Positions 21,449-36,451 of a DNA stretch of 64,000 nt are shown here, one piece after another. The first letter of the stretch is position 1; every line of letters starts with the position of its first letter. Under the pieces are notes generated by a model that searched no databases, was not told where the DNA came from, and saw only the letters and a list, made by a program, of their open reading frames with translations. The stretch spans positions 1 to 64,000 of the IMG/VR virus record IMGVR_UViG_3300035698_022389. The stretch is one strand, 5' to 3'. The DNA comes from a virus. A program made the translations under genes and the position numbers.

Positions 21449-21478
21449 TTGACACCTTTGAGATTGTTCTGTTATACA
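21449..21478 (+). promoter_or_regulatory. Sigma70-like promoter
   Basis: TTGACA-N18-TATACA with an extended -10 TG, upstream of ATG 21533. Confidence 0.6.
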
Positions 21479-21532
21479 TGTGTTACGAGGTTTTGTTTTT
21501 TTGTGTTTACATGTGTTGTGAAAAGAGGGTGT

Positions 21533-24100
21533 ATGGGACAATTAACTCCTAAGTTGTTAAATATTTTGTATAGTCAAGAAGGTCGGATTGAATCTTCTAT
21601 TGCAAAAGAATTTGGTCTTAGTCAGGTACAGGTAGGTAGGTTACGTAAAAAATGGGGAATACCTACAATGACTAAAGGTGAGAGAATTTCTTTATCTCTG
21701 CCTAGTGTGACTACTCAACAATGGGAATTGTTTATAGGTTCTTTGTTGGGTGATGGTAGTATGAGTCAAACCAGTGAGCTTTCTGCTCGTTTCATGGAGG
21801 GTCACAGTTTAAAACAAGAAGAGTATTTAAACTGGAAACATCATATCTTAAAGCCCTTTTCAAAGAAGATTTTTAATATTCAGAAAAGAGAGAATGGGAA
21901 AATACATAGAGGGAAAGGTTTTGTAACCAGCTCCTGTACCAAATTACGTATTTTTTATGATATGTTTTATCCAGCACCTTTACGGAAAAAGATTTTCCCT
22001 AGGAATTTACCTGCATTGATGACTCCGTTGGTTTTAGCTATTTGGTATATGGATGATGGGAGTATTACTTCAAAGGGTAAACCTAGGATTCATTTTGGGT
22101 TGGATAAGGTGAGTGAGGACAGGGCAGTAGCTGCTCTAAAGAAGTTAGGTTTGAAGCCTTGTCTTTATGGGATAGAAGGCGGTGACAGAACTTTTCATTT
22201 TCCAGGGCAAGCTATGAAATTTAAATCCTTGGTAGAACCTTATATACAGGAAGTTGTTTGTTTACAGTATAAGATACCTACAGAAACTAAACGGCAACAA
22301 GGGGACCGGCAAGCTAAGGCATTAACCCCTGAAAGGGCTTTGGTTTTGTATGATGCTGGTATGTCTATAACTATGATTGCTAATGTGTATGGTGTTGGTA
22401 CGTCTACTGTACGTAGACGTATAGGGTCAGAGAATTTACGTTTTTCTGGCCCTGTAGTTTTGAAACATTCTTTATCTGAAGCTAATATGATATTAGAATG
22501 TTTTAGCCCCGAGGATTGGTCGACTTTTTCTGAGGTTGAACAAGATCAGTTAGTCGCAGATATTATGAAAATACTACGAAACACCCCTTTCCCAATAGAA
22601 CCTTCTAAAGAATATCCTATGACTGTTGTAAGTAAATTAAGTAACACTTTTTTTTATCTGGAAAATGGGGATGTGATAAGACCTAAGAATCATATAGGGA
22701 CCTCATTCTGTGCTTCTCTTTTCCCTAATCGGTATAGGGCTTCTTCAAAAGGTGGCCCTACTGCTTTTGAGTCGTGGTATGACGATAAACAATTAGAGTG
22801 GGCTGTTCGTTTTCAGTTGAGATCCGGTGATCCGGTATTACCTTATAGAGTGTTAAAATCAATTACTATGAGATGTCGTACACCAACCGTCTTTAGACCT
22901 TCTGTGGCTGCTTTTATGTGTAGGAGATATCTTCCTAAAGGTGGTGTGTGGTGGGACCCTTGTGCGGGGTATGGCGGGCGTTTATTAGGGGCTTCTTCAG
23001 TGCCTGGGGTCCAGTATATAGGGACGGATGTTGATCCTGAAACTGTGAAGGGTAATTTGAAATTAAAATCGGTATTAGGGTATGTTAATTCTGAGGTTAT
23101 AGAAAAACCTGCTGAGAAGTTTGACCCGCCTCCGTGTGATATGGTATTTACGTCCCCTCCTTATTTTGATAGGGAGAGGTACTCCACAGGAGAAGATCAA
23201 TCATGGGTTAAGTATAATACTTTTTCTAAGTGGTGTAGTGAGTTTTTAGTCCCTATTATGAGGACGGCTTTTGAAAAATTAAATGAGGGGGGTGTTTTTG
23301 CTTTAAATGTTGCAGATATACGTAAAAATGGAGAAGTGGTTCCGATAGAGAAGGCCGTAAAAACCTTAGCAGTGGAGGTTGGTTTTGAGTTACTTGAGAC
23401 TTTAAAAATGCCATTAGCTGCTATGAACAGAAAAAACCCTACGGAACCTATTTTTGTTTTTAAGAAGTCTTTGAATCTGGGGGGTTCTAAAGATAGTTAT
23501 TATATAGATAGAGGGTGTAAGGGATTAGAAAAACCTGAAGGGAAAGGGCTTTCGGATCTTGGGGAAAAGCCTGATGAACCTGAACAAGTGTTGGGTTTTT
23601 TGCCCAGTCTGGGTATATGTTCCGTTTGTGGGAAAACTTTCCCTACTATGGAGCTAAGGAATGGCAACTGCCCTTCTTGTCTTGTTAAGGGTGTAGAGAT
23701 TGCTGTTTGTAAGGGTTGTGGTAAAGAGTTTGTTAGGAAGAACAAGCTTCATGAGTTTCATTCTGCTAATTGCAGGGCCCGTTATGATAGGAAAGAATGG
23801 AGAAAGACACATCCTGTGAAGGAAATACGTATTTTCACTTGTAAGGTTTGCGGGGTTAGTTTTGAAACGAGTCTACTTGGAAATTTCACTATATGCAATA
23901 CATGTAAAGAAAATAAGGATATTGCAAATCGAACCAGGATATGCAAATATCGTGAATGCCAGATGTCCTTTGTTGATACTTCTTCAAAAAATGGTATGAA
24001 CTATTGTTGTGAGGAGCATCGTCGAAGGGAGAAACTGTTTAGGTCTGGGAAACTATCGTCTGTTTCTCAATTCAGAAAGCCCGATCCGATCAATCCTTAA
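21533..24100 (+). CDS. Fusion protein: HTH + LAGLIDADG endonuclease + HTH + amino-DNA methyltransferase + multi-CxxC zinc ribbon
   Basis: FIGSLLGDGS (21731) and LAIWYMDDGS (22034); SAM motif WDPCAGYGG (22949); catalytic SPPY (23153); many CxxC pairs at about 23617-24020. Confidence 0.8.
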   Translation: MGQLTPKLLNILYSQEGRIESSIAKEFGLSQVQVGRLRKKWGIPTMTKGERISLSLPSVTTQQWELFIGSLLGDGSMSQTSELSARFMEGHSLKQEEYLNWKHHILKPFSKKIFNIQKRENGKIHRGKGFVTSSCTKLRIFYDMFYPAPLRKKIFPRNLPALMTPLVLAIWYMDDGSITSKGKPRIHFGLDKVSEDRAVAALKKLGLKPCLYGIEGGDRTFHFPGQAMKFKSLVEPYIQEVVCLQYKIPTETKRQQGDRQAKALTPERALVLYDAGMSITMIANVYGVGTSTVRRRIGSENLRFSGPVVLKHSLSEANMILECFSPEDWSTFSEVEQDQLVADIMKILRNTPFPIEPSKEYPMTVVSKLSNTFFYLENGDVIRPKNHIGTSFCASLFPNRYRASSKGGPTAFESWYDDKQLEWAVRFQLRSGDPVLPYRVLKSITMRCRTPTVFRPSVAAFMCRRYLPKGGVWWDPCAGYGGRLLGASSVPGVQYIGTDVDPETVKGNLKLKSVLGYVNSEVIEKPAEKFDPPPCDMVFTSPPYFDRERYSTGEDQSWVKYNTFSKWCSEFLVPIMRTAFEKLNEGGVFALNVADIRKNGEVVPIEKAVKTLAVEVGFELLETLKMPLAAMNRKNPTEPIFVFKKSLNLGGSKDSYYIDRGCKGLEKPEGKGLSDLGEKPDEPEQVLGFLPSLGICSVCGKTFPTMELRNGNCPSCLVKGVEIAVCKGCGKEFVRKNKLHEFHSANCRARYDRKEWRKTHPVKEIRIFTCKVCGVSFETSLLGNFTICNTCKENKDIANRTRICKYRECQMSFVDTSSKNGMNYCCEEHRRREKLFRSGKLSSVSQFRKPDPINP

Positions 24101-33334: not shown

Positions 33335-33835
33335 ATGGCAGTAGCCTTTATTCCGGGAGAAACAATATCAAGAGGAGACTTAGACATCTTCTTGCAGAAT
33401 AGTTTAGGGAATCCAGCAAATGCTGCAGAGATTTACTACACTCTTTACTATGTAGCTCCAGGTCCTCCTGAATCCGAAGTACAGGTTGGCCAACCTCAAC
33501 GAATTCCCGTAAATCCTGCCGTCGGGGAGTATTACGCTTCTCTTATGGTTCCCCAAGGTTCAACCCCAGGAACATATAGAATTCGATGGACATTCAGAGA
33601 ACTTATCAATTCACCCCAACAGCAAGTCGTTCAGGAATTTGCTATCGTGACAGCAGCTGGCTCCTTATTGGTTCCTGGATATGATCAGGCTCAGACAGCA
33701 ATGATGAGAAGCCTTCGGATGCTTTTAAGAGATCAGTGTGTTGGTGGTGAAGTTACAGTAGAAGTGGATGCCGATGGTGAATTGATGGTTGTGTCCATGA
33801 AAGATTTATGGGAGGCTTTGAAAGATGAAGTCTAA
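33335..33835 (+). CDS. Split gene part 1: N-extein (134 aa) + short N-intein 1 (32 aa)
   Basis: ...MLLRDQ | CVGGEVTVEVDADGELMVVSMKDLWEAL*, intein block A starting at Cys 33737. Confidence 0.8.
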   Translation: MAVAFIPGETISRGDLDIFLQNSLGNPANAAEIYYTLYYVAPGPPESEVQVGQPQRIPVNPAVGEYYASLMVPQGSTPGTYRIRWTFRELINSPQQQVVQEFAIVTAAGSLLVPGYDQAQTAMMRSLRMLLRDQCVGGEVTVEVDADGELMVVSMKDLWEALKDEV

Positions 33836-34307
33836 CCAGCCACATCAAAAATTATTACCTTTATTAAAGAAATATGAAGTTTTTCCATATGGACAGAAAA
33901 AGATAGGTTGAAAAATGTTAAGTGTGCATGATAAACTGAGAAATGCTTTTCGTGTAGGGAAGTTAAAAACGAGATCAGTATCACCTGAAGGAAAAATGGA
34001 ATGGAAATGTGTAACAGATGTCCATAGGGCTGAGGTTCCTTGGGAAGAAATTCGGAGGGTAGATACTAAATATGGTCATGCTTATTTAACTAAAGGGCAT
34101 AGAGTTTTTGTATCTCCTGTAATAAAAAAGAATGCTGGGGATTTAGTAGAGAATGATAGTGTTCTTGGCATAGATGCTTCAGATACTGTTTTTTATCCTA
34201 GTTTAACATCTATAGCTGTTAAACCCTCTCGTAAATATATGTATGATTTAACTGTTGCTGACTGGCATAATTTTGTTTTGTTTGATTCACGGATGGTTAT
34301 CAGTAAT
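33737..34307 (+). mobile_element. Atypically split mini-intein 1 (IntN 33737-33832, IntC 33915-34307)
   Basis: Block A is in one ORF and blocks B/F/G are in the next; no endonuclease domain. Confidence 0.8.
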
Positions 34308-34679
34308 TGCCCTGACAAATTTTATCATTTCAGGCCACCTGAGTACGAAGGGGATATCGGACAGTATAATCGAATATTTGGTCAGATATGGGAAGACGAG
34401 GAACTTTTGGAGTACCTGCTGAGGTCTTTGGATTGGTTCAACATGTTCCCCCCACTAACTCAGAAGATCAATACTTTGACCATTCTGCTTCAAGCCATGC
34501 CCGCATGGAGGACAGCCATCCTGTGGGGTGCTATTACTCATGCTTGTTTTGCTTTATCGATAAATTGGGTCGCGGACGAATTTTCTGTTCGTGGTGATCA
34601 GGAGGTAACTGTAGTAACTAAATCAGGTAAAGAGATTTCTTTATCGATTCAAGAATTGTATGAGATATGCAAGAACTAA
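33915..34679 (+). CDS. Split gene part 2: C-intein 1 (131 aa) + middle extein (92 aa) + short N-intein 2 (31 aa)
   Basis: LTKGHRVF, MYDLTVADWHNF, VISN | CPDK... (34308) ...ADEF | SVRGDQEVTV...SIQELY* (34584). Confidence 0.85.
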   Translation: MLSVHDKLRNAFRVGKLKTRSVSPEGKMEWKCVTDVHRAEVPWEEIRRVDTKYGHAYLTKGHRVFVSPVIKKNAGDLVENDSVLGIDASDTVFYPSLTSIAVKPSRKYMYDLTVADWHNFVLFDSRMVISNCPDKFYHFRPPEYEGDIGQYNRIFGQIWEDEELLEYLLRSLDWFNMFPPLTQKINTLTILLQAMPAWRTAILWGAITHACFALSINWVADEFSVRGDQEVTVVTKSGKEISLSIQELYEICKN

Positions 34680-35160
34680 TTAGTAAACGACAATTTATGG
34701 TAGGCAAAAGGGACTTGAAAAAGACTCCAGATATTTGTGTAGCTAGGGTGCAGGAGGTATTATTACAATGTTGAGAATAAAAGAACAATGTGAAATCAGA
34801 GAATCTTTTAAGGAGGGTACTTTACAGGTAAAAAGTGTTGACCCTGTTACAAAAGGTGTGGTATTACAGCCTATTATTGAGGTGTTAAAACATAAAACCC
34901 CTGATAAAGTTATGTTAGAAGTGGTTACCGATTGTGGGACGGTGGTTACAACACAAGATCATTCTTTGTTTAAATCTGATATGGTATCTGTTGAAGTTTC
35001 CAATTTAAAAGAAGATGATGAAATAGCCTGGGTGGATGGTATTTATAAACCCATGAAAGTCAGAAAGATCAATGTAGTCCCTAATGAAGTTTTTACTTAT
35101 GATTTAAGTGTCCCTCCTTTTCAGAATTTTACACTCTCTAATGGAGCTGTAGCACATAAT
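34584..35160 (+). mobile_element. Atypically split mini-intein 2 (IntN 34584-34676, IntC 34768-35160)
   Basis: Ser1 block A ends ORF 2; blocks B/F/G ending His-Asn with Ser(+1) are in ORF 3. Confidence 0.82.
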
Positions 35161-35451
35161 TCATATAGCATAGGCGGGGTATCCTTGGATATTGAGAAAT
35201 CCTCAAAATACGAATCCTTGAAACAAAATGCTGAAGGTCAATTAGAGAAAGCAGCTGAAGCAAAACAACGAACTGTTAAATTTATCCGAGGGTTACAGCA
35301 GCCCAGATTCGGCCTCGGAGTAAGGAGCAGTTTTGGCCCACATGTAGGTAACGGCATACTTAGCCCTCGGAGTTTTATGGCTTGGGCTGTTGCTGTTTTA
35401 ACACCTGCATTAGTTTTTGTTAGTTCTGCCAACAGTCTAGGTTTGGTCTAG
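34768..35451 (+). CDS. Split gene part 3: C-intein 2 (131 aa) + C-extein (96 aa)
   Basis: AGGAGGT RBS; TTQDHSLF, TYDLSVPPFQNF, VAHN | SYSIGG... (35161). Confidence 0.85.
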   Translation: MLRIKEQCEIRESFKEGTLQVKSVDPVTKGVVLQPIIEVLKHKTPDKVMLEVVTDCGTVVTTQDHSLFKSDMVSVEVSNLKEDDEIAWVDGIYKPMKVRKINVVPNEVFTYDLSVPPFQNFTLSNGAVAHNSYSIGGVSLDIEKSSKYESLKQNAEGQLEKAAEAKQRTVKFIRGLQQPRFGLGVRSSFGPHVGNGILSPRSFMAWAVAVLTPALVFVSSANSLGLV

Positions 35452-35535: not shown

Positions 35536-35961
35536 ATGAGTGTTTCTGTAGAAAGGTTAATTCATCGGTATATGCAAGCATTTGTGTCTAAACAATCCCC
35601 GAAGGCCGTTGTTTATATTAGTAAAGACTCTGTATATTTTCAGGGTGCCCTTCCTTGTGGGGTTATGGGGTCTATTAAAGATATGATGAAAACTCATAAG
35701 AAGGGGTTGGATTTGTGTAAACAGACGGTTTTAGCATTACGCAAGGCATTTCCAACATGTAAAGCATGGAAATTACCCACAAAAGATTTTGATTATCTTG
35801 CAGGGGAGACTTCAAGTAGACTTTTCCCTTTGTTTTTTTCAACAGGACAACCAGCTTCTTTAGGGGTGTTTCAATTTGAACTTATGGATGTAGATGAAGT
35901 TGAGGCCATCACTCTTAAAGTGATGAAACATTTGGGTTGGGAAATTAAAATAATGGAATAA
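35536..35961 (+). CDS. Hypothetical protein
   Basis: GGAGG RBS; N-terminal VERLIHRY motif. Confidence 0.65.
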   Translation: MSVSVERLIHRYMQAFVSKQSPKAVVYISKDSVYFQGALPCGVMGSIKDMMKTHKKGLDLCKQTVLALRKAFPTCKAWKLPTKDFDYLAGETSSRLFPLFFSTGQPASLGVFQFELMDVDEVEAITLKVMKHLGWEIKIME

Positions 35962-35968
35962 GGTAGTT

Positions 35969-36451
35969 ATGAAAAAACAAACATCTTTTCAAAAATTCAG
36001 TCCTGAAGGATTAAAGCAGGCATTAATTAAATTAGCTTCTGATAATCCTGAACTAAGGAAGCATTTAGTACCCCTTCTGAAAGAAGCTGGGTATAAACGT
36101 AGACCTGAGTTTACAATGGAGATTTCAAGGGGGGGCGCTGAATTTGGGTTTTATTACCCCTACGTGAAAACCAACATGGAAGAACAAAAAGAGAAATGCT
36201 GGGAAGAATTTAAGGCTATTGTAAAAATCATTTTTAAGAAATATAAGGGTAGGAAACTATATTTTAATTCTAATTTATCTGATATAATAGTTTTACCAAA
36301 AGAGTTTATGTTACATAAAAACAAAAAACCTAGTATTAGTGTCCCTGATGTGTTTAAGCATAAGAGTTTAAACATTGAAAAAGAAGTAAAACAGATTGTT
36401 AATCGCTTTGGTTGGGTTTTAGATATTGGTTGGGTCGCATATTATCATTAA
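35969..36451 (+). CDS. Hypothetical protein with N-terminal LRKHLVPLLK motif
   Basis: LIKLASDNPELRKHLVPLLKEA. Confidence 0.7.
   Translation: MKKQTSFQKFSPEGLKQALIKLASDNPELRKHLVPLLKEAGYKRRPEFTMEISRGGAEFGFYYPYVKTNMEEQKEKCWEEFKAIVKIIFKKYKGRKLYFNSNLSDIIVLPKEFMLHKNKKPSISVPDVFKHKSLNIEKEVKQIVNRFGWVLDIGWVAYYH

Follow-up and report, generated by a model that had tools for sequence, protein, structure and literature searches.

The 64,000-nt stretch of DNA analyzed here (the window) is taken from the IMG/VR record IMGVR_UViG_3300035698_022389. The record comprises 132,879 bases and is ~25% complete according to CheckV, and from this completeness we conclude that it covers part of a huge phage genome. 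Downstream of the genes for TerL, the portal and the prohead protease, which lie within the window, we observed three consecutive open reading frames (ORFs) on the + strand at positions 33335-35451, each in a different reading frame. These ORFs very probably represent a single head-to-tail adaptor gene with two split inteins, the three products of which would be joined by trans-splicing. The anatomy of the gene, its homology, fold and conservation and the history of its endonucleases can be followed directly in the data and are described below.

Anatomy of the three-piece gene

All features of the locus are encoded on the + strand. ORF1 (33335-33835) consists of extein 1 (33335..33736; 134 amino acids (aa) with the C-terminus LRDQ) and the N-terminal intein piece IntN1 (33737..33835 including the stop codon, 33737-33832 without it), which has 32 aa, begins with Cys1, carries blocks A and N2 and has a net charge of -7. 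ORF2 (33915-34679) starts with the C-terminal intein piece IntC1 (33915..34307; 131 aa), in which we found block B as T59-x-x-H62 (TKGH), block F with D111 (YMYDLTV) and the C-terminus ISN with Ser-Asn131. It continues with extein 2 (34308..34583; 92 aa, CPDKF...ADEF, with Cys at the +1 position) and ends with IntN2 (34584..34679 including the stop codon, 34584-34676 without it), a piece of 31 aa with Ser1 and a net charge of -1. ORF3 (34768-35451) is composed of IntC2 (34768..35160; 131 aa) with block B as T62-x-D64-H65 (TQDH), block F with D112 (TYDLSVP) and the C-terminus AHN with His130-Asn131, and of extein 3 (35161..35451 including the stop codon, 35161-35448 without it), which has 96 aa and starts with SYSIGG, providing Ser at the +1 position. 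A ribosome-binding site (AGGAGGT, 34752..34758) is located 9 nt 5' of the ORF3 ATG. The lengths of the IntN and IntC pieces and exteins, the nucleophiles, the motifs and this ribosome-binding site had been listed in a first-pass annotation made from the sequence alone, and we reproduced all of its numbers.

The ORFs are separated by gaps of 79 bp (gap 1) and 88 bp (gap 2), both with stop codons in all frames, and neither Rfam families nor terminator-like sites were found in either gap. Gap 1 is covered by a mini-ORF of 28 codons (33825..33911), whose ATG overlaps the end of ORF1 and whose TGA (33909-33911) lies 3 nt before the ORF2 ATG. A second mini-ORF of 35 codons (34667..34774) covers gap 2; its ATG at 34667 is located within the end of ORF2, and its TGA (34772-34774) overlaps the ATG of ORF3 (ATGTTGA). 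By these overlapping or abutting starts and stops, ORF1, the first mini-ORF, ORF2, the second mini-ORF and ORF3 form an unbroken chain, and translational coupling of the three pieces through this chain is a matter of speculation. Extein 3 carries a hydrophobic C-terminal extension of 23 aa, AWAVAVLTPALVFVSSANSLGLV (35380-35448), beyond the end of the relatives that were read (SPRNF[LVI]), which may have originated from a lost stop codon.

The exteins match uninterrupted homologs

We joined the three exteins by script and compared them with uninterrupted proteins. The joined sequence aligns over 299 aa to P0120 (299 aa), an intein-free protein from a metagenome, with 88% identity and without a single gap, and the same identity is found for extein 1 compared to residues 1-134 of P0120. 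At the junctions the two sequences differ in the +1 residues only, with Cys for Asn at site 1 and Ser for Asp at site 2. Protein gp319 of the Tunturiibacter phage Tunturi_5 (283 aa), which carries the depositors' annotation head-tail connector, is uninterrupted as well; it is 27% identical (E 2e-30) and colinear, and both junctions are ungapped. In the uncultured phage LR745208.1 (485 kb) only the first site is broken: a TnsA-like endonuclease ORF of 347 aa separates extein 1 with IntN1 from IntC1-extein 2-extein 3, and the second site is empty (EEF-DYSIGG). This fractured copy is the sole adaptor match across the whole 485-kb sequence. Regarding the insertion sites, the flanking residues R128, D133, P136 and F226 are invariant in 39 intein-free homologs. 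Site 1 is located directly after the first helix within the invariant R..LLRD.NPD..YHFRPP motif and site 2 directly before the hairpin within the invariant ADEF.YS motif; conserved sites of this kind are typical intein locations. The first-pass annotation had taken the three exteins for one gene and had proposed a search of the joined extein for an uninterrupted homolog. The P0120 ortholog with its flush junctions and gp319 of Tunturi_5 are such homologs, and the three exteins are indeed one gene.

The host protein is likely a head-to-tail adaptor

The fold of the host protein was modelled for P0120 with AlphaFold, using 39 intein-free homologs (mean predicted local distance difference test (pLDDT) 79.2). 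The model shows an immunoglobulin (Ig)-like beta-sandwich (residues 1-104), a helical domain (118-264) and a beta-hairpin (228-235). According to this fold, extein 1 contains the N-terminal Ig-like beta-sandwich and the first helix of the adaptor domain, extein 2 the helical core of that domain, and extein 3 the beta-hairpin, a long helix and the C-terminal arm of the adaptor. In an exhaustive structural search, residues 117-276 of P0120 matched the adaptor or neck chains of at least 15 portal-tail structures with Z-scores of 8.0-10.9 over 97-118 aligned residues, which are mid-range values that can be reached by chance for helical domains. The matches include the adaptor chains of cyanophage A4 and Pa223 (both Z 10.9), SU10 (Z 10.3) and GP4 (Z 10.1), the gp13/gp14 neck of T4 (Z 9.7), the neck of phage 812 (Z 8.5), and the adaptor chain of DEV and the adaptor of PhiM1 (both Z 8.0). 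The N-terminal domain of the model matches macroglobulin-like and other Ig-like domains. When Foldseek was run against the PDB, matches of the Ig-like N-terminal domain dominated and the helical domain was not identified.

At the sequence level, Pfam and PHROGs searches with the three ORFs and ten neighbours yielded no host-protein family and a single unrelated match of a neighbour, and the profile of the 39 intein-free homologs detected no solved relative. The homolog in LR745208.1 gave a weak match (0.0067) to the PHROG 'head-tail connector'. Because the structural matches repeatedly hit one functional class, and because of the gene position and the depositors' annotation, we accept the modelled protein as a likely head-to-tail adaptor. 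The neck function proposed in the first-pass annotation is thereby supported, T4 gp13 being among the structures matched by the helical domain. The protein probably resembles known phage head-to-tail adaptors in its helical domain, beta-hairpin and C-terminal arm, and its gene lies downstream of terminase, portal and protease. It differs from them by the extra N-terminal Ig-like (macroglobulin-like) domain and shows no detectable sequence similarity to any solved adaptor.

Intein identity, fold and split point

The C-terminal parts of both IntC pieces match the Pfam family Intein_splicing (PF14890; 6e-6 and 1.7e-8). IntC2 on its own matches solved inteins by sequence, and 48 solved inteins were detected with a profile built from eleven IntC pieces (best 3.6e-12), position 20 of the profile corresponding to about residue 31-32 of Npu DnaE. 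We tested the HINT fold for IntC1 with an AlphaFold (AF2) model of ORF2 (mean pLDDT 81.6), and IntC2 was assessed by sequence. Residues 5-131 of the model fall on HINT domains: 71 chains were found at Z≥8, those listed being all intein/HINT domains, and the highest score was obtained for the Mtu RecA mini-intein 3ifj_A (Z 15.2, root mean square deviation 2.0, 115 aligned residues), with the alignment starting at its residue 21. IntC1 also matches VidaL (PDB 6VGV) with Z 12.5 and the IntC chain of Cat (6DSL) with Z 11.0, where model residue 12 lies opposite about chain residue 35. Each IntC piece is a HINT domain that lacks about the first 20-30 residues, and each IntN piece supplies blocks A and N2. 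The presence of two inteins and their atypical split, both stated in the first-pass annotation, were thus found again: all splicing blocks are there and are invariant across the family, IntC1 has the HINT fold, the IntN pieces of 31-32 aa face IntC pieces of 131 aa, and the start of IntC1 corresponds to about residue 21-30 in canonical inteins.

Splicing residues are conserved

Relatives were retrieved with ORF2 (333), ORF3 (784) and the intein-free P0120 (381 clusters at 50% identity) as queries, and conservation was analyzed in sets of 85 IntC1 and 121 IntC2 diverged sequences with mean pairwise identities of 44-45%. In IntC1, T59, H62 and N131 are present in 85 of 85 sequences each and D111 in 84 of 85. 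In IntC2, H65, D112, H130 and N131 are each found in 121 of 121 sequences and T62 in 119 of them. The first residue is equally fixed, with Cys1 in all split and contiguous site-1 inteins that were read and Ser1 of IntN2 in 65 of 65 relatives. At the +1 position of site 1 we observed Ser (62) or Cys (30) in all 92 sequences, and at that of site 2 Ser (119) or Thr (4) in all 123. Where site 1 is empty, the +1 position is occupied by Asn (28), Ala (2), His (1) or Asp (1) and never by Cys or Ser; at empty site 2 it is Asp (58), Ser (24), Asn (8), Gly (8) or another residue. Judged from these alignments, the residue pattern is that of selection for splicing chemistry rather than for mere docking of the halves, and we infer tandem trans-splicing of the three chains.

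Allelic states of the two sites

We classified 382 retrieved sequences against P0120 and observed that each site can be empty, occupied by a contiguous mini-intein (about 145-197 aa) or split, with all nine of the nine possible combinations present. Among these relatives, 53 are intein-free, 70 consist of IntC1, extein 2 and extein 3, 13 combine a contiguous site 1 with a split site 2, and 41 are middle pieces split at both sites, to which 9 sequences classed as N-terminally truncated can be added. Third pieces composed of IntC2 and extein 3 numbered 125. On a tree of 87 intein sequences the contiguous forms are intermingled with the split ones, the state changing 14 times.

Short middle pieces of 146-149 aa were considered as a second, conventional split point. 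This was rejected, as the one examined (P0110) is a truncation made by the gene caller, its true ATG overlapping the upstream endonuclease ORF. Another relative, P0381, ends with NPDRNY followed by a Ser-initiated IntN-like tail (SVDGKEKIRIR...LEELWEII...), which suggests that some relatives have a third intein site, located 6 residues downstream of site 1.

Homing endonucleases at the split points

Next, we analyzed the gaps in the loci of relatives. At site 1 they hold a free-standing TnsA-like gene (L001, L005 and L011) or a GIY-YIG-like gene of the T5orf172/MUG113 type (L006), and at site 2 DUF559/Vsr-like genes in four of the four loci examined (L005, L006, L007 and L011); in L005 and L006 both gaps are occupied by endonuclease genes. 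The endonuclease families are thus site-specific, although the break lies in the homologous loop behind block N2 in either intein. A direct comparison is offered by L011 and L012: L011 has a TnsA-like ORF exactly at the split point of intein 1, whereas the intein of L012 is contiguous, and the DNA directly downstream is 87% identical.

Unlike those of L001, L005, L006, L007 and L011, the gaps of the window hold no endonuclease gene. However, part of the gap 1 mini-ORF, KSNQPHQKLLPLLKKY, matches KASEPHPKLVPLLEKH of the gap 1 endonuclease ORF of L006 (z 7.6, 0 of 300 shuffles), and the mini-ORF also matches the endonuclease of L001 (z 4.1). By these matches, the gap 1 mini-ORF is the vestige of a free-standing homing-endonuclease gene that was lost. 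For the gap 2 mini-ORF we found no significant similarity to the Vsr-like endonucleases of gap 2 (z about 1), and no vestige is claimed there. Gap 2 of L012 (4251-4331), which is without an endonuclease, retains the first ~60 nt of the Vsr-like ORF of L011, with the DNA alignment passing the ORF2 stop codon; this looks like a second case of endonuclease loss by internal deletion.

Further ORFs of this kind were observed outside the gaps. Directly downstream of the adaptor gene, an ORF of 457-477 aa with similarity to DUF7487 and homing endonucleases is located in L001 (4627-6060), L006 (7130-8557) and L007 (6440-7813). The corresponding part of the window contains unrelated small ORFs (35536-36451). 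Elsewhere in the window, at 21449-24097, an 883-aa ORF shows matches to a LAGLIDADG homing endonuclease (1.7e-21), DNA-binding and methyltransferase-like domains and no match to PF14890.

Differences between the two inteins

ORF2 has the layout IntC-target-IntN, and for this reason a cross-reaction between the two inteins would cyclise or skip extein 2. In the tree of 87 sequences the site-1 and site-2 inteins form separate clades, with a Shimodaira-Hasegawa-like approximate likelihood ratio test (SH-aLRT) value of 99 on both sides and one change of site label. In the window, IntC1 and IntC2 are 27% identical, and BLAST gave no alignment between IntN1 and IntN2, in which only a hairpin and a subsequent S-x-x-[DE]-L-[WY]-E are recognisable by eye as common features. 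The nucleophiles differ as well, with Cys1 and Cys or Ser at +1 in intein 1 and Ser1 and Ser at +1 in intein 2. The same holds for the block B context (GHR vs DHS), for block F, where His118 is conserved in intein 1 and no such His is found in intein 2, for the penultimate residue (Ser vs His) and for the net charge of the IntN pieces of the window (-7 vs -1). In the AF2 model of ORF2, IntN2 is folded as a hairpin and a helix (pLDDT ~90), the model being silent on docking of IntN2 to IntC1 and on cross-reactivity. Since the inteins are deep paralogs that fall into two clean clades and use different nucleophiles, it is plausible that the two pairs do not cross-react.

A stronger claim would be that a Cys-type and a Ser1/Ser+1-type pair have co-evolved to strict orthogonality and that tandem trans-splicing is used by the phage and not merely tolerated. 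Such a use might be a checkpoint that releases assembly-competent adaptor only when the three chains are present in equal amounts, or it might be a source of exon-2-skipped or cyclised middle products. We regard this claim as unlikely.

How the gene may have been broken and may be rejoined

From these data we propose the following course of events. Two paralogous mini-inteins interrupt the adaptor gene at two conserved sites, each split after its first ~31 residues. They would belong to two old, site-specific intein lineages, each of which was repeatedly invaded at the same loop by endonuclease genes, TnsA-like or GIY-YIG-like at site 1 and Vsr/DUF559-like at site 2, so that a contiguous intein was turned into a fractured gene. 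Later deletion of both endonuclease genes in the phage of the window would account for the gaps of 79 and 88 bp and for the two stranded split inteins. The three ORFs are probably co-transcribed and maybe translationally coupled. After translation, IntN1 would pair with IntC1 and IntN2 with IntC2, and two trans-splicing reactions would yield an adaptor of ~322 aa (~36 kDa) with the junctions LRDQ-CPDK and ADEF-SYSI, which would then assemble on the portal.

Alternative explanations

Several observations weigh against a single adaptor gene joined by trans-splicing. The ribosome-binding site of ORF2 (GATAGGT) is weak. The penultimate residue of intein 1 is Ser and not His, although Ser is also found in 65 of 92 relatives and the fast intein Npu DnaE likewise ends with Ser-Asn. 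The assignment as an adaptor, likely as it is, draws on mid-range Z-scores of a helical domain, one weak PHROG match (0.0067) and the depositors' annotation. Finally, as the record is ~25% complete, there is room for another, intact adaptor gene in other parts of this phage genome.

The lack of the penultimate His in intein 1 would fit an adaptor that is a complex of three chains, in which splice-dead intein halves only hold the pieces together by tight non-covalent docking, and split intein halves are generally known to bind one another strongly. For docking, however, neither Cys1 or Ser1 nor TxxH, the block F Asp, the terminal Asn and the +1 nucleophile would be needed, yet they are invariant, and the contiguous alleles of these inteins must splice to yield any adaptor at all. 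We consider such a docked complex decidedly unlikely.

It is very unlikely that the split itself is adaptive, with tandem trans-splicing gating neck assembly in time or stoichiometry or yielding exon-2-skipped or circular products. In favor of this idea, ORF2 has the IntC-target-IntN layout, the mini-ORFs with overlapping starts and stops that link the three genes could enforce coupled translation, and split alleles without an endonuclease persist in several lineages. Nevertheless, intein-free alleles exist at up to 88% identity, and the interspersion of contiguous and split forms on the tree together with the nine combinations of states is the pattern of a selfish element. Since close relatives carry intein-free, contiguous and split alleles, and since flips between the contiguous and split states are frequent, the split is not required for function and looks like the legacy of a selfish element rather than a required device. 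The assembly gate or alternative splicing that had been suggested in the first-pass annotation therefore finds no support here, as the sites in this gene are empty or hold contiguous inteins in close relatives.

We also considered a decaying gene that lost its function through endonuclease invasions and whose role was taken over by an adaptor gene elsewhere, for which the incomplete record leaves room and to which the odd 23-aa C-terminal extension of ORF3 could be related. The three ORFs are intact, though, and compared to an intact ortholog their exteins show 88% identity and no frameshift; moreover, the layout is conserved across many diverged phages, and the fractured gene is the only copy in the 485-kb LR745208.1. 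Decay is accordingly highly improbable.

An assembly or sequencing artefact, or recoding by frameshift or readthrough that restores contiguous inteins, is effectively already refuted: contigs from two other samples (ENA ERZ27316110 and ERZ27315536) are 100% identical over the three ORFs and both gaps, the three-piece layout was found again in dozens of diverged contigs (L005, L006 and L011 among them), the pieces lie in three different frames with every frame stopped in each gap, the extra 79 and 88 nt are absent from contiguous alleles and the region has no Rfam match.

Comparison with known split inteins

The GOS 'Terminase' intein (Dassa et al. 2009, PMC2677866) was the first in which an unusual break of this kind was observed, and the combination of a short IntN and a long IntC is now termed atypical (PMC10189870, PMC12707363). 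Like the TerL-type inteins (GOS Terminase, AceL-TerL and Cat 6DSL), those described here are phage-borne and have a short IntN with the first motifs and a long IntC from block B on. They differ in that the host is an adaptor and not a terminase and in that two inteins reside in one gene. The IntN pieces of 31-32 aa also exceed the 15-25 aa quoted for known atypical inteins. The split point of Cat (6DSL) is structurally equivalent within a few residues, but Cat was not matched in our sequence searches. PolB16 OarG shares with intein 2 the atypical split and the combination of Ser1 and Ser+1 (PMC10189870). However, PolB16 OarG and VidaL are split after 15-16 residues and are found in other hosts, and the block B His, which is dispensable in PolB16 OarG, is invariant (121 of 121) in intein 2.

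The loci of the relatives further resemble the fractured genes of Dassa et al. (2009, PMC2677866), whose hosts are only DNA-metabolism enzymes and terminase and for which the family of Vsr/DUF559-like endonucleases was described. They share the phage origin and the free-standing endonuclease between the halves, including the Vsr/DUF559-like type at site 2. In contrast to those fractured genes, the break described here is at the atypical N-terminal point and not between motifs N4 and C2, site 1 is associated with TnsA-like nucleases, a structural protein of the virion serves as the host, two breaks occur in one gene, and the window is without either endonuclease gene.

With three segments, two split inteins and a middle IntC-target-IntN segment, the locus is built like engineered schemes for tandem trans-splicing or split-intein circular ligation of peptides and proteins (SICLOPPS). 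Engineered tandem schemes require orthogonal pairs, and for the natural locus the differences between the two inteins are consistent with orthogonality. Unlike engineered tandem trans-splicing, the arrangement here is natural and encoded in a genome.

Biological significance

Our searches of the openly accessible literature yielded neither a natural protein dependent on two split inteins nor an intein located in a head-tail connector. The parts, namely atypically split inteins, fractured genes and Vsr-like endonucleases, are already known; new compared to the literature we found are the virion adaptor as host, the two split inteins in series on one natural protein and the allelic series of nine states.

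Well-behaved split-intein pairs are in short supply for engineering, especially atypical and serine-using ones (PMC10189870, PMC12707363). The locus offers a pair that has apparently already undergone natural selection for joint function on a single protein within one cell, and each intein comes with roughly a hundred diverged natural variants as well as contiguous forms for comparison. For the annotation of huge phages, three 'hypothetical' ORFs are explained as one adaptor gene. A virion structural protein is added to DNA-metabolism enzymes and terminase as a host of fractured genes, and in it two paralogous inteins were broken at the same structural loop by different families of endonucleases. 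Taken together, the unusually complete series of empty sites, contiguous inteins, split inteins with an endonuclease and split inteins without one documents how a split intein arises and gets stranded.

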